Shown here in pieces: positions 18,713 to 50,691 of a stretch of DNA of 64,000 bases. Numbering within the stretch: position 1 is the first letter of the stretch; the number at the start of each line of letters is the position of its first letter. The DNA is taken from assembly GCA_017445225.1 (NCBI GenBank), contig JAFSUN010000004.1, positions 3,280-67,279 on the forward strand, read 5' to 3'. The DNA is from Erysipelotrichaceae bacterium. GTDB taxonomy: Bacteria > Bacillota_I > Bacilli_A > Erysipelotrichales > Erysipelotrichaceae. The notes below the pieces were generated by a model that did not search any database, was not told the DNA's origin, and saw only the letters and a list, made by a program, of their open reading frames with translations. The position numbers were made by a program, and so were the translations under genes.

Positions 18713-18719
18713 ATCATTC

Positions 18720-19075
18720 GGTGGAAGTGAGGGGAATCGAACCCCTGTCCAAAACGTGCCTCACATTCAGATGTCTACAGTTTAGTTCATCATTGGGTTT
18801 AACAGGATTACCGTGATGAGCAGCGGATCATCCTGCGATCTCCATGAGTTTTCGTCACCGGGTTATTGAGAATTACCGATGCTTATCCTTTGTCTTTGAC
18901 ACCAATTCCTGCCCCATTGGAGAAGACAGGATTGACGGCTGCGAGCTATTTATTCAGCTACTAAGCAGCGAAAGCTAACTGACGGTTGTCGGTTATATTT
19001 AATTTTCGATCTTTGAGGCAATCACGCCACTGCAACCTGAATCCAACATCGCCCTGTCGAAACCAAGACACCCCC
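18720..19075 (-). ncRNA. ssrA: tmRNA (transfer-messenger RNA)
   Basis: 5' end GGGGGUGUCUUGGUUUCGACAGGG and 3' end GGACAGGGGUUCGAUUCCCCUCACUUCCACC form a tRNA-Ala-like acceptor with G3:U70. An internal reading frame reads ...GAC AAC CGU CAG UUA GCU UUC GCU GCU UAG UAG (..DNRQLAFAA, double stop). Length 356 nt. Confidence 0.92.
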
Positions 19076-31766: not shown

Positions 31767-31843
31767 CGGGATGTAGCACAGTTTGGTAGTGCACCTGGTT
31801 CGGGACCAGGGGGTCGCAGGTTCAAATCCTGTCATTCCGACCA
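31767..31843 (+). tRNA. tRNA-Pro (anticodon CGG), CCA encoded
   Basis: Hand-folded cloverleaf: acceptor CGGGATG/CATTCCG, D stem GCAC/GTGC, anticodon stem CCTGG/CCAGG with loop TTCGGGA, T loop TTCAAAT. 77 nt. Confidence 0.9.
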
Positions 31844-31978: not shown

Positions 31979-32479
31979 ATGAAAAACAGACAACTGAAAC
32001 TGACCGCCCAGGCTGCGATGATCGCTGCCGTGTACGTCGCCCTGACTTATGTCTTTGCCCCGATCTCCTTCGGTGAGATCCAGGTAAGGATCGCCGAAGC
32101 CCTCACCATTCTGCCGGTCTTCACACCGGCTGCCATCCCGGGGCTGTTCATCGGCTGCCTCATCGGCAATGCCATCTCCGGTGCCGTTGTTCCCGACATC
32201 ATCATGGGCTCCATCGCTACCCTGTTAGGCGCTCTGGGAACCAGGATGCTGAGAAAGCAGTCACCCTTCATCGCCGTCCTGCCGCCCATCATTGCCAACA
32301 TGGTGATCGTGCCGTTCGTACTGCGCTATGCCTACGAAGTCCAGCTGCCGATCCCCTTCATGATGCTGACCGTCGGCATCGGTGAAGTCCTCTCCTGCGG
32401 CGTTCTGGGCATCATGCTCTACTATGCCCTCTACCGGCACAGAGCCCAGATCTTCAGGGAAGAGGATTCCCTTTCCTAA
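31979..32479 (+). CDS. queT: Queuosine-precursor transporter QueT (ECF S-component-like)
   Basis: 166 aa with 5 TM helices, N-terminus LTAQAAMIAAVYVALTYVFAPISFGEIQVRIAEAL. The riboswitch context supports the call. Confidence 0.8.
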   Translation: MKNRQLKLTAQAAMIAAVYVALTYVFAPISFGEIQVRIAEALTILPVFTPAAIPGLFIGCLIGNAISGAVVPDIIMGSIATLLGALGTRMLRKQSPFIAVLPPIIANMVIVPFVLRYAYEVQLPIPFMMLTVGIGEVLSCGVLGIMLYYALYRHRAQIFREEDSLS

Positions 32480-32543: not shown

Positions 32544-32572
32544 AAAAAGTGCAGAATAATCTGCACTTTTTT
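32544..32572. terminator. Bidirectional terminator between queT and the zinc-ribbon gene
   Basis: AAAAGTGCAG-AATAAT-CTGCACTTTT with flanking A- and T-runs. Confidence 0.75.
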
Positions 32573-35026
32573 CTATATAGAATCATCTTCGAATAACGAC
32601 TCTTGATATTCTCCTGTGCCCTTACATCTTGGGCACTTCTTTCCATAGAATCTGTCTTCAATTCTATCTTTCCATTGATAACCACATAAATGACATTTCC
32701 AATAGATCATACTATGACTTTTTGATGTAAACATAGTTGGAAGACGAGTTCCATTTTTTTCAAAATCCCACTCTTTAGCCAACTCAGGTTTTATAGTCGC
32801 TAAATCATTAAATCCGGGTAATATTTTATGTCCAGAACAATACGGACATCCCTGGTTTTGTCCTGTTCTATTAGCCACTTTTTGCATAAAACTATGGCCT
32901 TTATTACATTTCCACCATGCAGTTTCCCGGCCTTTATATGCAACCTCAACAGGGCTCCTTTTATTCTTCTCAAAGTCCCACTCCTTTACAAGATCAGGAC
33001 GCATGGTAGCCAGATCATTTACTCCAGGGACGAACTGTTTCTTAGCAGTTTCTGACATTTTCTTTCTTGCACAATTTGGGCATCCATGTCCCTCTGCTCT
33101 GGCATATCTGCTTGCTGGCACCGCTTGCCATTCATAACCACAAACACTGCATTTCCACCAAATCCGTTTTCTGTTACTTGTTGCGACAGTATTATACGGT
33201 GTCAAGTATCCATTCTTGGTAGGATGCCACTCTTCAATCAAATCTGGACGTACAGCAGCAAAACTGCTCTTTTCCATTTTGCTTTTCATTATCTCTGAGA
33301 CAATACCAACATCTCTCTGACAATCTACATCTGGTTCAATTGAAAGATTATACTTCTTGTTGATATAGTCGAATAGCTGACTAATTGATTTATCTAATTC
33401 ATGATAGTTTTTGTAACCACCTTCTGTAACAATTATGAAACTGCCATCAAACAGTTCTTCACAACCCTTTTCTCTAATCCTTACTAAATCTATACCTAAA
33501 GATTTGAGTTGTTCTGTTTTTTTTAAATCCTTTAGAATGCTTTTATGCCATCTACTTCCATCATATTCAATTCCCAACTTTAGTGACGGAATATATATGT
33601 CAATTTCTTGCCGACCTAAAACATCACTTCTATATGAATTAACTGCGTCATCAAAATGTTTCCTGACATAGTAATAAACCATTTGTTCTGGTTCTGATGT
33701 TCGGTAGGCTTTTGCACATTCAGGACACCCCTGTCCTTTTGATCTCAGATGGATACTTTTCTTCCATTCATTTCCACATCTTGGACATAGCCACCATACC
33801 TTCTCAGAACTAGCTCTTGTAAAATCATTTGGAGTCAACACCCCATTTTTAGTTGGATGCCATTCTTTCGCCAAATCTGGTTCCAATGCTGCAAATGTAT
33901 TGCCAGCTGCTTTCATATTTTTAACTTTATTACCTGAGCTGATTCTTTTGCTACAGGCAGTACATACAAGATGTTTATTCTTTGTTCTTCCATATATAGA
34001 CATCTCATATGACTTTCCGCATTCAAAGCATTTCCACCACACCCGACTGTGGCTTCCCTTTAGTACATCTTTTGGTGTTAGATCTCCGTTCTTTTCTTTG
34101 TCCCATAAAACTGCTATTTCAGGATAATTAGATTCTAAGTCATTGAATCCGACTAACACCCTTTTTCCTGAACAGTATGGACAACCTTGCTTCTGATTAG
34201 TTCTAGCTGCCGGCGTCATTAAATAACTATGATTCTTCTTACATAACCAATACACTTTCCTACCTGTGGAACTGGCTGTAACTTCATACGGAGTAATAGT
34301 GTTTTTCTTGTAATCCCACTCTTCCAGTAATTCAGGATACCGATCTGCTAAAGAACCCCCAGTAGTAAGAATAGCGTTCCTTCTTGCTTGAGCTCCCCTG
34401 CGATTTCCACAGTCTTTACATCCTCTTCCTGTAGTTCTTTCATATATGGAAGCTCGCCATTTTCTTCCGCAGGTTTTACAAATCCAATTTACTTTTGTGT
34501 TGCTTTTAGCATATATTTCATCTGGATTTATAGTATTGTTCTCATAATCCCATTCATCCAATAATTCTGGATGTAGACTAGCCAAATCATTGAAACCTTT
34601 TAGCACTTTTTTTCCTGCACAATATGGACAGCCCTGATTCTGGAAAGCTTTACTGGAAATCTTCTGCAGATATGAATGACCCTTTTCGCATTTCCAAAAC
34701 GCATTCTTGTTTGCATATTGGGCAACTTCAGTAGGGTTAAAATCGGTGTTTTTATCATAATCCCATTCAGCTAACAAATCTGGTCGTTTAGTTGCCAGAT
34801 CATTAAATCCTGCAAGAACTTTAGTACCAGCACAGTATGGACAGCCACTACCCCTTGTTCTGGTTGCTATTGATGTTTCCCAAGATCCGCCGCAATTTGG
34901 GCATTTCCACCAAACTTTGATATTGCTTCTCGGCGAAAAATCCTCAGGTCTAGCTCCGAGGTTCTTATCATAATCCCAATATCCATTTACAACAGCCGGA
35001 AAAGCTTCTTTCAAGTTCTTCTTCAT
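32573..35026 (-). CDS. Poly-zinc-ribbon protein with a central DUF559/Vsr-like (PD-(D/E)xK) endonuclease-fold domain
   Basis: 817 aa with nine ~70-aa modules of the form W(D/H)xxKN...P.....S..KVWWKC..CG..W...I..R..G.GCP.C.G. They begin at W17, W88, W159, W237, W308 and W389, and again at W600, W683 and W753. Between them lies EIDIYIPSLKLGIEYDGSRWH (aa 474-494), which matches the DUF559 pattern x-D-F-x...L-x-I-E-x-D-G-x-x-H. The gene is visibly more A+T-rich than its flanks. Confidence 0.8.
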   Translation of the reverse strand: MKKNLKEAFPAVVNGYWDYDKNLGARPEDFSPRSNIKVWWKCPNCGGSWETSIATRTRGSGCPYCAGTKVLAGFNDLATKRPDLLAEWDYDKNTDFNPTEVAQYANKNAFWKCEKGHSYLQKISSKAFQNQGCPYCAGKKVLKGFNDLASLHPELLDEWDYENNTINPDEIYAKSNTKVNWICKTCGRKWRASIYERTTGRGCKDCGNRRGAQARRNAILTTGGSLADRYPELLEEWDYKKNTITPYEVTASSTGRKVYWLCKKNHSYLMTPAARTNQKQGCPYCSGKRVLVGFNDLESNYPEIAVLWDKEKNGDLTPKDVLKGSHSRVWWKCFECGKSYEMSIYGRTKNKHLVCTACSKRISSGNKVKNMKAAGNTFAALEPDLAKEWHPTKNGVLTPNDFTRASSEKVWWLCPRCGNEWKKSIHLRSKGQGCPECAKAYRTSEPEQMVYYYVRKHFDDAVNSYRSDVLGRQEIDIYIPSLKLGIEYDGSRWHKSILKDLKKTEQLKSLGIDLVRIREKGCEELFDGSFIIVTEGGYKNYHELDKSISQLFDYINKKYNLSIEPDVDCQRDVGIVSEIMKSKMEKSSFAAVRPDLIEEWHPTKNGYLTPYNTVATSNRKRIWWKCSVCGYEWQAVPASRYARAEGHGCPNCARKKMSETAKKQFVPGVNDLATMRPDLVKEWDFEKNKRSPVEVAYKGRETAWWKCNKGHSFMQKVANRTGQNQGCPYCSGHKILPGFNDLATIKPELAKEWDFEKNGTRLPTMFTSKSHSMIYWKCHLCGYQWKDRIEDRFYGKKCPRCKGTGEYQESLFEDDSI

Positions 35027-35044: not shown

Positions 35045-35053
35045 ATTATAGCA
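35045..35053 (-). promoter_or_regulatory. Extended -10 promoter (TGCTATAAT) of the zinc-ribbon gene
   Basis: On the minus strand TGCTATAAT ends 18 nt before the ATG. No SD is recognisable in the short leader. Confidence 0.45.
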
Positions 35054-35147
35054 AACATGTAATAGATATCATCCTTCACATCTGTAAAAAACAACAAAAA
35101 GAAGAATCTGACGACTCTTCTCTCGTTTCCTTGCTTTTTCTTTTAGT

Positions 35148-36494
35148 TTAGTCTGCCAGCGTTCCCATCGGGTCCCACGGTTCCAGTTCCACCAGGGGCT
35201 GCTCCAGGAGCTTTCTGGTTTCTCTGGAGAGATAGTTCTTGTCAACGACCGCCTGGAAGACGTAATCGTCAAACCACTGGTCACTGGCCACATAATAGCC
35301 GTCACGGCCGGCCTTCTTGCCCCAGCTGTTTTCAATCTTCCATTTCAGAGGCTTGCCGTTCTTTAAGTCAACCCCTTCAAAGACCATGGCATGGTTCATG
35401 GCACTTTCACCATAGGTCAGCTTGTCGCCCTTGGTAAACCAGTGCTTAATGCCGCACATCTCGGCGATGGCCGCGGTCGCCTCGTCAAAGGTACCGCTCT
35501 TGTCTTCCGAGCCCTGGCCGCAGTCCGAACCGAACCAGACCGGATGGCCGTCCTTCAGCTGGGCGATGACCGCCTTCTTGACCTCGTCGATCGGCAGGTT
35601 CAGATATCTTACCGGCTCCCCTTCCACGACGTTGCCGAGGTGCTTGACGGTATACATGGCATTGAACGGCTTGTCATGGGATGGGGCATTGATAAGCGAT
35701 ACGTAGTCTTCGATCTTGATGCCGATGTACTTGCGGAAGAACTCCCTGGGGGTGATGTCCCGCTCTTCGATCAGCTTTTCATCCTTGTCATGGACCACCA
35801 GGTCAAAGCTGACCGGCGGCTCGCCCAAGGCTATGACCAGGATCCGGTAGATCTCCTTCAGCATTTCTCTGCGGGTCTTCAACAGTTCCTTCCGGCTCAG
35901 ACCGTCCTTAACGGCCTTGCGCAGCACTACGGCATCCTCTCTTAAGCGCTTGGTCATCAGCTGGGTATACTTCCAGGTGTCACGGGCATTGGCGCTGTCC
36001 GGATAGGCATATTTCGGGCAGACTCCGTACTTGTTTACCAGGTTGACGATCATGTCCCACTGACCCCCATCGCCTAACGGATCGCGGTTGATCCAGTTGA
36101 ACAGTCTTCCCTCTACCGGCTCATCAGCCAGTTCGATCACGGTATTCAGATAGAAGTTGGCCTTTTCCAGCTTGTCCCAGAAATGCAGATAAGCCTGGGA
36201 AAGCTCAAAGTCCTCTACCTTGTTCTTCTTCATGAATTCATAGCGGAAAACGTTGGTAGCGGCGAACAGCCAGCAGCGGCCGCTGCTTTCCTGATTGGTT
36301 ATCGAACCCTGCTTCAGTTCGATCGAGAAATTGGTGTCGTTACGGCGCAAGGCCTTGTAGTCAACGGCAGCCTTGTCAATTCCGACGCTGTTGGAGGCAT
36401 TGGCAGCGACCTTATAAGCTTCATTACTGTTAAAGTCCCGGAGATATTCCTTCACATCATCAGCACTTACAGTGGTTCCAACTAAGTCTCTCAT
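35148..36494 (-). CDS. pepC: Aminopeptidase C (C1-family bleomycin-hydrolase-like cysteine peptidase)
   Basis: Active-site QESSGRCWLFAATN and C-terminal ..ENSWG..GYY. 448 aa from the ATG at 36494, which follows AGAGGAAA. Confidence 0.9.
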   Translation of the reverse strand: MRDLVGTTVSADDVKEYLRDFNSNEAYKVAANASNSVGIDKAAVDYKALRRNDTNFSIELKQGSITNQESSGRCWLFAATNVFRYEFMKKNKVEDFELSQAYLHFWDKLEKANFYLNTVIELADEPVEGRLFNWINRDPLGDGGQWDMIVNLVNKYGVCPKYAYPDSANARDTWKYTQLMTKRLREDAVVLRKAVKDGLSRKELLKTRREMLKEIYRILVIALGEPPVSFDLVVHDKDEKLIEERDITPREFFRKYIGIKIEDYVSLINAPSHDKPFNAMYTVKHLGNVVEGEPVRYLNLPIDEVKKAVIAQLKDGHPVWFGSDCGQGSEDKSGTFDEATAAIAEMCGIKHWFTKGDKLTYGESAMNHAMVFEGVDLKNGKPLKWKIENSWGKKAGRDGYYVASDQWFDDYVFQAVVDKNYLSRETRKLLEQPLVELEPWDPMGTLAD

Positions 36495-46265: not shown

Positions 46266-46739
46266 ATGATCGTTATTGAAATGCAGGACGGCCGGAAGAT
46301 GAAATTCGAACTTGACAGTAAGAATGCTCCGATCACCGTCGCTAACTTCCTCAAGCTGGCTGAAAGCCACTTCTACGATGGATTGACCTTCCACCGCATC
46401 ATTAGGAACTTCATGATCCAGGGCGGTGACCCCACGGGTACCGGCATGGGCGGCAGCTCTCAGAACATCAAGGGCGAATTCCTTGCCAACGGTGTCGATA
46501 ACCAGCTGAAGCATGTCCGCGGTGCCATCTCCATGGCCCGCAGTTCCCATCCGGATTCCGCCAGTTCCCAGTTCTTCATCTGTCACGTTGACACACCGCA
46601 TCTGGACGGCAGCTATGCCTGCTTCGGCAAAATGATTGAGGGCTTTGACGTCCTCGATGATCTTGCTTCCGTCCGCACCGGCTTCATGGACCGGCCTCGG
46701 ACACCGGTCGTCATGAAACGCGTATACGTTGAAAAGTAA
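46266..46739 (+). CDS. ppiB: Cyclophilin-type peptidyl-prolyl cis-trans isomerase
   Basis: FHRIIRNFMIQGGDPTGTGMGG and SQFFI. 157 aa. Confidence 0.9.
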   Translation: MIVIEMQDGRKMKFELDSKNAPITVANFLKLAESHFYDGLTFHRIIRNFMIQGGDPTGTGMGGSSQNIKGEFLANGVDNQLKHVRGAISMARSSHPDSASSQFFICHVDTPHLDGSYACFGKMIEGFDVLDDLASVRTGFMDRPRTPVVMKRVYVEK

Positions 46740-46955
46740 AAAAGAAACCGAAGCAAGGGGAGAATGTAACGAAATAGCGTAGATCTCCAAATAGTTCGGG
46801 GGTCTAGCGATAATTTGGGGGGGACAACTCTGGGGGTCAACACTCAGAATATATTGTAGATTAACCCCCAATCCTCTATATTTTTAATGATTTATTATCC
46901 ATGTCTACTTGACAAGAGTCAGTTCACTATCTGGGGGTTTTAACCTACAAATATC

Positions 46956-46978
46956 CACCCGCAAGCGGGTGTTTTTTT
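46956..46978 (+). terminator. Rho-independent terminator, 217 nt downstream of ppiB
   Basis: CACCCGC-AA-GCGGGTG followed by TTTTTTT. It functions only in the plus orientation. Confidence 0.75.
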
Positions 46979-47099
46979 CGGTTTGGGCATAACCCTTGTC
47001 TACAGGCAGCGCACAAGTGCGCTAATTGGTGCCTGCCAGCCTGTATCATCATTATTAGTACCCCTAAAAGGGGCTCTCGGATCAAACAAAGCCAACTGG

Positions 47100-47287
47100 G
47101 CGGTCTCTCTATCGGCTTTCAGCTGATTGGCAATGGTATTCCTTGTTTACCCTCGTGCTCTTTCCTCCAACTGTCCAATACTTTGATATGGTGTGACGGT
47201 TAACACCGTACCCCTTTCCAATTTACTGAAATTTGGCTTGTTTCCTATGTTCTCTAATATCAGTAGTTCTCCTTCCAGAATCTTCAT
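47100..47287 (-). pseudogene. Frameshifted N-terminal HTH fragment of a transposase/recombinase-type gene
   Basis: My own translation gives MKILEGELLILENIGNKPNFSKLER. After a 1-nt shift in a G-run it continues YGVNRHTISKYWTVGGKSTRVNK. This is an xxGVNRHTISKYW recognition-helix pattern typical of IS transposase N-termini. No catalytic domain follows. Confidence 0.4.
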
Positions 47288-47415
47288 CTGATACGATCCT
47301 CCTTGCGAGAATTGTATCAAAAAATCAGCCGCTATTCGCTTAGATCAAACTGCCATTTTTGGCACTTTTTATTCCAGCATTTTTGGCTGATTTTAGTTTA
47401 ACATTATCATCAAAA

Positions 47416-47628
47416 TCAGGAGTTTACCTTTAAAGGTTTAGAATGTATATACTTCTTTTTGGTTAGTTGTTTTCCACACCACGGGCAATAATAAATCTCA
47501 TTGTATGACTCTTTGTCAAAATAATTGATACCATACTTTCTGCGTCTTTGAAGATAACAAATACTCTTTTCTGTTGTTCTGTCTACAGAACACTGTCTTT
47601 CCATCGAACCGCAACAAAACTTATTCAT
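47416..47628 (-). CDS. Small Cys-rich CPWCG-motif protein (paralogue of the upstream gene)
   Basis: MNKFCCGSMERQC...ICYLQRRRKYGINYF...IYYCPWCGKQL. The ATG at 47626-47628 overlaps the stop of the upstream gene (ATGAATAA). Confidence 0.6.
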   Translation of the reverse strand: MNKFCCGSMERQCSVDRTTEKSICYLQRRRKYGINYFDKESYNEIYYCPWCGKQLTKKKYIHSKPLKVNS

Positions 47629-47938
47629 GTTTATTCCTTTCAAACAATTCATGAATGTTCTTAAAAAAAGCTATCTCTTCCTTATCTGTCGACGAAGAAC
47701 AAGTATACTCATTGAATTTATGATTGTATATCGAAAATATGTTTTTGTCAGTTGTGCCATTATTTTTTAGTTTTTCACCACACCACGGACAATAGTTTAA
47801 GGAAATACACTCTCCTGAAAAAGCGTTTATCAGATAATATGTGTCTTCTGATTCATCATAATAGGCCACTTTGTCACTTGCAATATAATCATCTATGTCT
47901 TCAACAACATTACATCTCATTCTTTCACAATCATGCAT
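47621..47938 (-). CDS. Small Cys-rich CPWCG-motif protein
   Basis: 105 aa: HDCERMRCNV...VAYYDESEDTYYLI...ISLNYCPWCGEKL. RBS TGGAGA. A+T-rich. Confidence 0.6.
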   Translation of the reverse strand: MHDCERMRCNVVEDIDDYIASDKVAYYDESEDTYYLINAFSGECISLNYCPWCGEKLKNNGTTDKNIFSIYNHKFNEYTCSSSTDKEEIAFFKNIHELFERNKHE

Positions 47939-47952
47939 ATCATTATCTCCAT

Positions 47953-48066
47953 TTATTTATTGTTTCCGATATTGTAAACTGTGCAGTTTCCATATCCGTC
48001 ATATTCATATCTCGCTGCCAAAGAACCATTGGAATCAAGAATCTCTATTGTATTATCTATGCTTTC
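47953..48066 (-). pseudogene. Start-less 37-codon remnant resembling an RHS/YD-repeat unit
   Basis: My own translation between two in-frame stops is ESIDNTIEILDSNGSLAARYEYDGYGNCTVYNIGNNK. The xxGxLxxxYxYDxxGN pattern is the YD-repeat consensus. It ends 14 nt before the ATG of the 105-aa gene. Confidence 0.35.
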
Positions 48067-48104
48067 TTAATGCGGATGTATCTGGTTCATCTGTTTTATA
48101 ACGT

Positions 48105-48683
48105 TTATGATTTTTTTAAGGAATACTTTACTTTTGCAATAATCAACCGTAGCTTATTACCAAACATGCCAACCGGAACATAAATCTCTTCGCCATCATA
48201 TTCTCGCAGAACATCGTAAATCTCATAAAACTCTGTCTCTACGCAATACAGATGACTATTGGCACATATATTGCTCACTGTTTCTACAGACAAATTGCAC
48301 TGTACATGGACATAAAAATCGTATCCAACATCAATTACTAATTCCCTTCCTACTATAACACCCCAGACTCTATTTCTCAGGCAATCACGAATGAAACTTT
48401 TTATCTTCATTACATGATATTTCTTGCTTTGTCTCCATTTATAGGACTGTATTGTCCACCTCTCCAGACGCCTGATTTCAAATGAGTCTGTTTTACTGCT
48501 TATGGCAATTTCCTCAATGGTTTTAAGGTATAGTTCTTCAACTCTTTCATACTCTTTTCGTGTCAGAACAGGAAAACAGGACTTTTTATTGATATCAGAA
48601 TAACCTGTCCACTCTTTTGGATAACGATACTTTCCATTTTCATCATAATCGTTGGGGTTATATTTAGATATTTTATAAAACAT
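48105..48683 (-). CDS. Hypothetical protein (192 aa), unknown family
   Basis: Good RBS (AGGTGA). MFYKISKYNPNDYDENGKYRYPKEWTGYSDINKK... A+T-rich. I recognise no motif. Confidence 0.6.
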   Translation of the reverse strand: MFYKISKYNPNDYDENGKYRYPKEWTGYSDINKKSCFPVLTRKEYERVEELYLKTIEEIAISSKTDSFEIRRLERWTIQSYKWRQSKKYHVMKIKSFIRDCLRNRVWGVIVGRELVIDVGYDFYVHVQCNLSVETVSNICANSHLYCVETEFYEIYDVLREYDGEEIYVPVGMFGNKLRLIIAKVKYSLKKS

Positions 48684-48880
48684 AATTAGTCACCTATCCA
48701 TTTGAGAAATTCATCAAAAGTACCTAATCTCTTATTATCAGAAAGAATGTCTGACAGTTTTTTTGCCATCTTCCAAACGCCACCTTTATGTGCATCAGCA
48801 TCTGGGGAATTATATGTTTTTCGGGTTATAGTGGACTGGTATGTCCTTTTAGTGGCTTACGGATCCATATGCTTACAATT

Positions 48881-49243
48881 TCATGCTGCTTTAATTCCAG
48901 CTTCCTTCATTCTATATCCTACCAGACTCATGTAACCCAGACTGCTGTGCAATCTCTTCCGGTTATAGAAGATCTCTATGTAGTAAAACAAATCCTTCTC
49001 CACTTCTTCAATTGTACTATATTTCTTCCTGTAGAAACATTCCTTCTTCCTACTGGCAAAGAAACTTTCCATGCAGCTGTTGTCATATGGACATCCTCCC
49101 TTGCTCATGCTTCCTTCTATGTTGTTTTCCACCAACATCTTCTGGTATTTCTTACTGCAGTACTGACATCCCCTGTCATCGTGGAATATCAACCTATTCT
49201 CCTTGTTTCCTCTCTTTACCAGCGCATTTCCCAACGCATTCAA
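48881..49243 (-). pseudogene. IS3-family transposase OrfB (rve/DDE integrase core) C-terminal fragment
   Basis: ..LIFHDDRGCQYCSKKY...SMSKGGCPYDNSCMESFF...FYNRKRLHSSLGYMS matches the HSDRGSQY / CYDNAxxESFF / FYNxxRxHSxLGY pattern. The N-terminal two-thirds (DD residues, OrfA) are missing, and the fragment abuts the eno stop. Confidence 0.8.
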
Positions 49244-49299
49244 AGAAAAGAAGATCCGAAATACTTCAGATCTTCTTCCACAATACTTACTTGGATGAC

Positions 49300-50691
<1,392 letters not shown>

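Follow-up and report, generated by a model that had tools for sequence, protein, structure and literature searches.

A putative zinc-ribbon-array endonuclease of the Vsr/EDxHD type between queT and pepC in an Erysipelotrichaceae bacterium

What is the function of a solitary A+T-rich gene that codes for a long array of zinc-ribbon modules with a nuclease-like domain in its midst? The question is raised by a 64,000-nucleotide (nt) stretch of DNA from an Erysipelotrichaceae bacterium (GenBank assembly GCA_017445225.1, contig JAFSUN010000004.1, positions 3,280 to 67,279), here called the window, in which an open reading frame (ORF) of 817 amino acids (aa) lies between queT and pepC. An earlier reading made without database searches (the sequence-only reading) had placed the ORF there and proposed that it encodes a modular sequence-reading nuclease, serving either as a homing or selfish element or in defence. 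The placement is borne out, both neighbours being identified by Pfam, and the proposal agrees with published work on relatives of the protein. We put at about three in four the probability that the ORF, acquired horizontally, encodes a metal-dependent DNA endonuclease of the Vsr/EDxHD type that is guided by its array. The explanation as a whole, including the role in defence that we prefer, is more tentative, with the odds slightly against it. The parts of the protein are as follows.

32573..35026, minus strand: whole ORF, zinc-ribbon-array protein and putative Vsr-type endonuclease, 817 aa with ATG start, stop codon included
33698..34978, minus strand: N-terminal array of six DUF4379 treble-clef modules (aa 17-71, 88-142, 159-212, 237-291, 308-364 and 389-443)
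33239..33703, minus strand: nuclease core, a Vsr/DUF559-like alpha-beta-beta-beta-alpha-beta domain with a two-helix extension (aa 442-596, ~155 aa)
33686-33688, minus strand: E447, further upstream of the main catalytic motif
33518..33607, minus strand: predicted catalytic motif E474-x-D476...E487-Y-D489-G-x3-H494...D500-x2-K503, from conservation in 113 cores
32606..33229, minus strand: C-terminal array of three DUF4379 modules (aa 600-658, 683-736 and 753-807)

Pfam recognises nine DUF4379 (PF14311) stretches in the protein (E 1.7e-157, 512 bits against a cutoff of 24.5), and the Pfam matches, motif positions, module identities and hidden Markov model envelopes agree in placing six modules before the core and three after it, as the sequence-only reading had counted. 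It had also given each module two CxxC pairs. This holds for the predicted zinc ligands of six modules, which are CxxC...CxxC, but modules 2, 4 and 8 have C-x3-H...CxxC. A C-x3-H first knuckle is the norm for the family, being present in 71% of 1,372 modules surveyed from 120 homologues, which have a median of 11 modules each (range 6-17). Across these 1,372 modules the positions equivalent to W389, N394, P399, S406, W411, W412, C414, G418, W421, R428, C434, P435 and C437 are near-fixed, while those equivalent to 396-404, 415-416 and the alternating 422/424/426/427/429/430/432 have high entropy. Such a pattern would be expected of modules in which the zinc scaffold is constant and a specificity face is exposed. 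Pairwise identity among the nine modules is 25-54%, with the C-x3-H modules 2, 4 and 8 being 50-54% identical to one another and the two modules flanking the core 47% identical. A recent internal duplication of modules was considered and rejected on the basis of these identities and of the DNA, where the only repeat in the array is a 101-nt stretch at 75%. Because DNA-level repetition is limited to that stretch, the array is old rather than recently amplified. No paralogues of the protein were found elsewhere in the window.

The central domain had been put at ~90 aa, which is too short, as the conserved core extends over ~155 aa; it is full-length and embedded in an array in 112 of the 120 best homologues. 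Its overall assignment as a nuclease is well supported. The DUF559 family (PF04480) matches aa 443-520 with 23.4 bits in the whole protein and 26.6 bits in the isolated core (cutoff 20.6), while the MTES_1575 family (PF18741) scores below its cutoff. When Pfam was applied to 36 diverse homologous cores it matched REase_MTES_1575 in 24, DUF559 in 12, DUF2726 in 11, PvuRts1I-N in three and Vsr in one, in keeping with the DUF559/Vsr signature that the sequence-only reading had recognised. The segment EIDIYIPSLKLGIEYDGSRWH, which spans aa 474-494 of the protein, includes D476 and E487, the two acidic residues that the sequence-only reading had singled out. Both are invariant in 113 homologous cores, as is K503 (113 in each case), followed by E447 (111), D489 (110) and H494 (110), and position 500 is either aspartate (86) or glutamate (24). 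The full set of invariant or near-invariant residues in these cores comprises S444, E447, Y453, E474, D476, P480, E487, Y488, D489, G490, H494, K503, R516, E519 and D572.

In the PDB the core profile finds its best match in I-Bth0305I (3r3p, E 0.002), whose catalytic domain aligns with the EYDG..WH...D..K motif in register. The register is confirmed by the H213A substitution of the 3r3p crystal, which is visible in the alignment. In I-Bth0305I the active site is formed by E170, D196, N208, H213 and D222, corresponding to E25, D51, H64, H69 and D97 of Vsr (Taylor et al. 2011, PMC3239194), and the profile alignment sets D489, H494 and D500 on N208, H213 and D222. The equivalents of E170 and D196 are likely to be E447 and D476, to judge from their spacing and from a comparison with the DUF559 crystal structure 3hrl, with which the D...E-x-DG...H signature of the core was aligned. 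All five EDxHD positions (E447, D476, D489, H494 and D500) are thus present, and they are 97-100% conserved in the 113 cores. AlphaFold2 modelled the core alone with a predicted local distance difference test score (pLDDT) of 94.2 and a predicted template modelling score (pTM) of 0.88. Its alpha-beta-beta-beta-alpha-beta succession is that of restriction-endonuclease-like folds, with D476 in the second strand and E487-x-D489 in the third. For the segment made up of module 6, core and module 7 the model reaches a pLDDT of 93 and a pTM of 0.83, and the latter value points to defined packing of the modelled segment.

The gene had been described as much more A+T-rich than both flanks and as foreign in its codon usage, and the numbers agree. 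The G+C (GC) content in sliding windows is 0.34-0.42 over the ORF and 0.50-0.59 in its flanks. Compared with the 42 other ORFs of the window its GC of 0.383 has a z of -3.3, and its GC at third codon positions (GC3) of 0.294, the minimum for the window, has a z of -3.9 (0.294 against 0.674 +/- 0.097). It is the strongest compositional outlier of the window. AT-richness of the whole family was rejected as a cause, since the homologues, from hosts of 28-47% GC, differ from their own flanks by only -0.05 to +0.05, as against 0.383 in flanks of 0.521 for the ORF. As the homologues match the GC of their hosts, the low GC is best seen as the mark of a transfer, and it would appear that the ORF was recently acquired horizontally from a low-GC donor. 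The gene is not conserved at the locus. A relative with a PepC of 79% identity has a DUF1848 gene downstream and one with a PepC of 65% has an aminotransferase, in neither case a ribbon-array gene, with synteny having drifted in both. Contigs with an identical QueT that reach far enough all carry the ORF, 94 nt away; the others end earlier. No gene-less pepC-queT allele was found among the identical-QueT contigs or the two PepC relatives with lost synteny, and a scan of reference genomes with PepC returned only relatives of <=41% identity.

The ratio of non-synonymous to synonymous differences (pN/pS) against the homologue of 67% identity is 0.22-0.27 in all regions, and the corresponding ratio of substitution rates (dN/dS) against the homologue of 50% identity is 0.16-0.20 in all regions. 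The lineage of the gene is thus under purifying selection throughout, arrays and core alike, with function retained. The notion that the arrays evolve faster than the core was rejected at this coarse level. Given the nuclease families matched by the core and its conserved acidic residues, and the foreign composition of the gene and its absence from the locus in relatives, nothing that the sequence-only reading had named as contrary evidence was found.

To what do the modules bind? The nine-module profile matches chains of kinetoplastid mitoribosomes in the PDB, namely mS66, mt-SAF33 and a large-subunit (LSU) assembly factor, with E from 1e-17 to 4e-11 (chains 7aor_at, 6hiv_DS for mS66, 6sga_Fd for mt-SAF33 and 6yxx_E2). 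The same chains came at the top when the model of module 6, core and module 7 was compared with the PDB by Foldseek, with only the ribbon being matched. The fold of the DUF4379 module is therefore experimentally established, in ribonucleoprotein settings. Its presence in kinetoplastid mitoribosomes and their assembly intermediates is an unexpected eukaryotic reuse, and these are the sole experimental structures of the module. A second line comes from CapR, although the Pfam CapR match to the 817-aa protein is weak (E 0.034). CapR, from the Vibrio cholerae PLE satellite, is a zinc-dependent DNA binder: it binds a specific phage promoter in a gel shift and loses binding when the cysteines of its CxxC...CxC are mutated; the CapR domain is also the DNA-binding part of homing endonucleases of phage ICP1, and Netter et al. 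(2021) noted a similarity of CapR to endonucleases of AR9, PBS1 and Lausannevirus (PMC8096241). The protein resembles CapR in having a treble-clef-like Cys4 module tied to homing-type nucleases and to mobile-element conflicts (PMC8096241). It differs in that CapR has a single module and no nuclease, and the CapR-domain enzymes of ICP1 carry a T5orf172/GIY-YIG-type nuclease rather than one of the Vsr type.

The closest described enzymes are those of Merk et al. (NAR 2025, PMC12350094), in which 3-5 CapR/DUF4379/DUF723-like domains are combined with an EDxHD/Vsr-like nuclease. These authors report thousands of unannotated relatives and see in such nucleases a large outgroup, previously unrecognised, to the homing endonucleases of the EDxHD/Vsr type (PMC12350094). 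In a BLASTP comparison the protein matches the 'Hef-like homing endonuclease' g146 of Bacillus phage AR9 with E 9e-14, across three modules and the catalytic motif. The AR9 homing endonuclease gene (HEG) is intron-encoded, inside a split gene for the RNA polymerase beta-prime subunit, and in its array one module scores as CapR and the next as DUF4379. The protein shares with the AR9-type phage HEGs the tandem treble-clef zinc modules of ~60 aa and the Vsr-like nuclease with its EID...E-x-(D/N)-G..WH motif. However, it has nine modules where these have 3-5, its nuclease lies within the array, behind six modules and ahead of three, where theirs is near the C-terminus, and it has D489 where both AR9 and I-Bth0305I have an asparagine. 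Its gene is also free-standing in a bacterial chromosome, with close relatives in defence islands and integrative elements, unlike the phage intron HEGs. The intron or intein location of the EDxHD type does not apply to the window gene, which is intergenic, and a search of the window with Rfam found no intron family.

I-Bth0305I likewise has all five E/D/x/H/D catalytic positions, and both are multidomain with a long footprint (~60 bp is reported for I-Bth0305I, PMC3239194), that of the window protein being predicted. I-Bth0305I differs in being a 266-aa, intron-encoded enzyme with another N-terminal DNA-binding region, lacking DUF4379 arrays. The core of the window protein is also longer by two helices (aa ~540-596), in which D572, S588 and P594 are invariant, and Foldseek did not bring up the structural match to I-Bth0305I. 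DUF559 typically occurs as a small protein of its own or fused to a helicase, whereas here it is embedded in a zinc-ribbon array. A similar layout of several DUF4379 modules and a restriction-endonuclease-like domain is found in the 'putative restriction endonucleases' of Lausannevirus and Insectomime (PMC5513546). These have fewer modules, belong to viruses of eukaryotes and form multi-copy families; they are likewise uncharacterised. Zinc-ribbon proteins of giant viruses also match the model of the core structurally. Two statements of the sequence-only reading need revision here. Its view that ribbon arrays are known only as 'probable zinc-ribbon' domains is out of date, given the solved mitoribosomal fold, CapR and Merk et al. 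(2025), and it overestimated the novelty of the gene, for the architecture is already catalogued by Pfam and NCBI, was noted in 2017 in giant viruses and was read in 2025 as a homing-endonuclease outgroup. NCBI already holds the identical protein as 'DUF559 domain-containing protein [Erysipelotrichaceae bacterium]'.

The family is large: among representatives of clusters at 50% identity the core profile matches 28,567 at E<=1e-3, of which 999 reach E<=1e-30, the match being mostly internal, in proteins of 300-1,270 aa. Relatives are present in 156 phage records, the short-array forms there often bearing a homing-endonuclease annotation, and in 156 plasmid records, mainly from Bacillus, Rhodococcus and Streptomyces, in 39 of which the match covers >=80% of the query. 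Several members stand out in their own right. In Bacillus phage vB_BtS_BMBtp15, a temperate phage, a 340-aa ribbon protein (L112:2177-3199) lies between the lysis cassette and the repressor, the interval that is the usual place of prophage accessory ('moron') genes. Ribbon-array genes are often found side by side in twos, as at L026:8001-12994, L029:4031-12194 and L113:6884-8907; these pairs are of 927 and 737 aa with overlapping stop and start, of 791 and 1397 aa in divergent orientation, and of two genes on a Lactobacillus plasmid beside a tyrosine recombinase. Such adjacent pairs hint at a two-subunit or heterodimeric use, or at local duplication. A DnaJ (PF00226) J-domain appears in the precomputed Pfam lists of eight homologues (P0015, P0020, P0033, P0081, P0086, P0091, P0100 and P0107). 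One of these long-array homologues, in which a ribbon-array nuclease would be fused with a J-domain, is from Legionella impletisoli.

What, then, would the protein do for its host? The genes around the homologues that were checked by hand give some indication.

P0002, 67% identity: 15 nt upstream of a type IIG restriction-modification enzyme (PADLOC E = 0)
P0003, 51%: adjoins HEC-07, Macro, ADP-ribosylglycohydrolase and SbcCD
P0017, 50%: 28 nt downstream of a retron reverse transcriptase (RT_Ec107-like, 5e-114)
P0061, 39%: after DrmB and DrmC (DISARM) and AbiU, with a second ribbon gene following
P0047, 39%: among NERD and antitoxin genes
P0120, 36%, and P0007, 34%: cargo of integrative mobilisable elements

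Four of these seven adjoin strong PADLOC matches, which is a raw count with no background rate. For a wider sample, a metagenome scan by six close cores gave 57 non-redundant loci with 150 nearest neighbours. Most frequent among these neighbours are tyrosine integrases (5), Xre-type regulators (5) and a second DUF4379 gene (3), followed with two each by DUF4160/DUF2442 pairs, which resemble toxin-antitoxin systems, Mob_Pre, resolvase, excisionase and NERD. Matches to methyltransferases, AbiJ and PDC candidates are scattered among them, together with ordinary housekeeping genes, and no conserved partner gene was found across the 57 loci. The co-localisation with defence islands or mobile elements that the sequence-only reading had proposed to look for is thus seen for the closest homologues, but in the wider sample the defence matches are scattered. 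The family thus behaves as an accessory gene sufficient in itself, which moves along with mobile elements and frequently comes to lie in defence islands, and this is suggestive of a role in defence.

The homologue next to the retron deserves separate description. P0017 (L016:6798-10433, also L017-L020) has nine modules and a core as in the window protein, and is found on at least 24 contigs. Beyond it and the reverse transcriptase lie a MazG-like gene, an SLFN-type helicase, a type IV restriction enzyme (7e-107), WYL, HIRAN and Cas9. The reverse transcriptase is preceded by a 17-nt perfect inverted repeat that encloses 194 nt (fold z = -3.6) and that reads as the a1/a2 signature of an msr-msd non-coding RNA, although an Rfam search of this locus for a retron RNA found nothing. 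In the retron classification of Mestre et al. there is no zinc-ribbon or Vsr effector, and the Ec107 clade is without a consistently associated protein. From this single observation, ribbon-array nucleases of the P0017 type may represent a new type of retron effector. No retron reverse transcriptase lies next to the window copy, which is preceded by pepC and dxs.

The mechanism that we propose runs as follows. Each module would bind one zinc on its fixed scaffold (W, N, P, WW-C, G-H/C, W, R, C-P-x-C), and its variable face, formed by the equivalents of 396-404, 415-416 and 422-432, would meet a short segment of the DNA. Together, the six modules before the core and the three after it would align the enzyme on a long asymmetric site and so place the central nuclease; for a monomeric enzyme, the asymmetry of the site is argued by that of the 6+3 array. 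The nuclease might nick as a monomer or, as a dimer, cut both strands like I-Bth0305I, the type of which acts as a homodimer that breaks both strands at a long pseudopalindromic site. The gene would have arrived as a single-gene insertion from a low-GC donor with its own promoter and terminator, needing no partner gene. Activity of this kind would presumably be exercised in conflict between genomes. We favour, with some reserve, a stand-alone nuclease attacking incoming phage or plasmid DNA over selfish homing, a choice that we would not yet put at even odds.

The strongest rival is that the gene is a free-standing selfish homing endonuclease, which would cut a gene-less pepC-queT allele so that repair copies the gene in, without benefit to the host. 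In its favour, the protein shares its catalytic motif and its type of module with the EDxHD/Vsr and CapR-type phage HEGs, its relatives in phages lie in introns and bear the annotation of Hef-like HEGs, and the family shows multi-copy expansions in giant viruses and fungi. The window copy is also a single gene inserted cleanly between two others, provided with a promoter and terminator of its own, with no integrase, transposase or repeats seen nearby and no partner gene conserved or needed. Its composition decides against such an arrival, however, because a gene of 38% GC in a genome of 52% GC cannot have come from its donor by homology-dependent homing. In addition, two alleles must co-reside for homing, which is rare between bacterial chromosomes, and no gene-less allele was found among the identical-QueT contigs. 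Two further points favour defence: the closest homologues are found in defence islands or as element cargo rather than at a recurrent conserved target, and the bacterial arrays, with their median of 11 modules, are much longer than the 3-5 modules of the phage HEGs. Selfish homing is therefore possible but, in our view, rather unlikely.

A number of observations weigh against the preferred reading, of a DNA endonuclease employed in defence, at each of its levels. When the PDB was searched with the single sequence of the core, the DUF559 structure 3hrl came up at no better than E 0.8. Foldseek with the model of the core found no PDB match at E<=1e-3; Vsr, 3hrl and 3r3p were outside the top 50, and the best restriction endonucleases were EcoT38I (0.036) and PspGI (0.13), with such enzymes lying in the range of E 0.04-0.14. 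The nuclease fold that the sequence-only reading assigned to the core is thus without a significant structural match in the PDB, but the same search of viral predicted structures gave 56 matches at E<=1e-3, with annotations that include DUF559, Vsr, restriction enzyme, NUMOD3 and homing endonuclease, the top one being a treble-clef protein of a Listeria phage (template modelling score 0.75, root-mean-square deviation 1.6 Å). The evidence from predicted structures for the fold is accordingly mixed. The solved DUF4379 structures are all in ribonucleoprotein complexes, DNA specificity of DUF4379 itself is not established, and no long-array member of the family has biochemical evidence behind it. 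As to defence, most of the 150 neighbours at the 57 loci are not defence genes (counts again without a background rate) and mobile-element markers dominate. No PADLOC-DB v2.0 model recognises the protein apart from a ribbon-level DruE3 match (E 1e-5, 63 residues), and the window copy lies between housekeeping genes, not in a defence island. An NCBIfam search with the protein gave no informative match.

The remaining alternatives fare much less well. The protein could be a domesticated, non-cutting DNA binder, such as a CapR-like repressor or occlusion factor, with the nuclease domain serving as a scaffold only. CapR does show that this class of module can be reused as a pure DNA binder, and ribbon-only relatives exist, including eight of the top 120 homologues and the 340-aa phage protein. 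Yet the catalytic residues are all intact, with 97-100% conservation, and purifying selection on the core equals that on the arrays, which makes a loss of cutting very improbable. Just as slim is the chance that the protein binds, and maybe cuts, RNA or a ribonucleoprotein, with the ribbons reading structured RNA as in the kinetoplastid mitoribosomes. The mitoribosomal chains mS66, mt-SAF33 and the LSU assembly factor, being the only solved DUF4379 structures, speak for this; however, Vsr, DUF559 and EDxHD domains are DNA endonucleases, CapR, the nearest experimentally tested module, binds double-stranded DNA, and those relatives whose setting is known are homing endonucleases of introns. The least probable reading is that of a Vsr-like housekeeping enzyme of mismatch repair: the core does belong to the Vsr superfamily, with one of the 36 cores hitting Pfam Vsr and Vsr-annotated viral models matching structurally, but the Pfam Vsr model does not match the protein itself, the gene is foreign in composition and not conserved at the locus, no cognate cytosine methyltransferase gene is adjacent, and Vsr has no counterpart of the nine-module array.

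The immediate surroundings of the ORF, in which the identities of pepC and queT derive from Pfam marks on sister contigs, are as follows.

31979..32479, plus strand: queT (PF06177), convergent with the 817-aa ORF
32549..32566, no strand assigned: bidirectional intrinsic terminator hairpin GTGCAGA-ATAA-TCTGCAC with A-run and T-run flanks, common to queT (plus) and the ORF (minus)
35045..35072, minus strand: promoter-like site (ATGATA, 16 nt, TG-n-TATAAT), a pattern match only
35097..35124, minus strand: terminator-like hairpin after pepC (fold z = -3.25), separating pepC transcription from the ORF
35148..36494, minus strand: pepC (Peptidase_C1_2), upstream neighbour of the ORF

The neighbours of the ORF are PepC, DXP synthase (dxs), QueT, LemA and DUF2207, with no methyltransferase of the kind that accompanies the nuclease in a type II restriction-modification system. 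The sequence-only reading had described an extended -10 promoter of the gene's own and no Shine-Dalgarno sequence. A TG-extended -10 TATAAT is indeed present at 35050-35045, ending 18 nt before the ATG, and no Shine-Dalgarno sequence was found ahead of the ORF, but promoter-like sites are not enriched in the region, with 5 found and 7.8 expected from shuffles; the promoter is well placed, without statistical support. The hairpin earlier given as the queT terminator is also present (folding at -15.1 and -16.1 kcal/mol, z = -5.3 and -6.1), with the correction that it is bidirectional and serves the ORF as well. With this shared terminator and the second hairpin after pepC, the ORF would form an independent transcription unit. 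No preQ1 riboswitch was found upstream of queT at the Rfam threshold.

Elsewhere in the window, a tRNA gene at 31767-31840 precedes queT by ~140 nt and is ~730 nt away from the AT-rich ORF, measured to the left edge of the latter, and a tmRNA gene lies at 18719-19075 (minus strand). Genes for tRNA and tmRNA are classic integration hotspots; neither of these abuts the insertion of the 817-aa ORF. A second AT-rich islet is found at 46800-49320, between cyclophilin (46266-46739, plus) and enolase (49300-50676, minus). Its ORFs at 48105-48683 (minus, 192 aa, GC3 0.32) and 48788-49318 (plus, 176 aa, GC3 0.35) have no Pfam match, and it is probably another small horizontally acquired insertion.

We propose that the gene be annotated as a zinc-ribbon-array Vsr/EDxHD-type endonuclease, horizontally acquired. 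The family to which it belongs is very large, and its long-array members have had no biochemical study. If the modules read DNA in a modular way, these proteins would be naturally occurring nucleases for long sites, with a recognition array that can be expanded, of interest to genome engineers, and this would help to explain how single-gene nucleases spare their own genome. In the boldest version, which we regard as quite improbable, DUF4379/CapR would be a true modular DNA reader with a fixed number of base pairs per module and specificity from the variable positions, and the natural arrays of 6-17 modules around a Vsr-type nuclease would be a third programmable protein scaffold after zinc fingers and TALEs, used by bacteria and their mobile elements for sequence-specific immunity from a single gene and, in one lineage at least, serving an Ec107-type retron as its effector. 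The contexts of the family, in defence islands, integrative elements and one retron operon, raise the question of whether relatives of phage homing endonucleases may serve as bacterial immunity genes.

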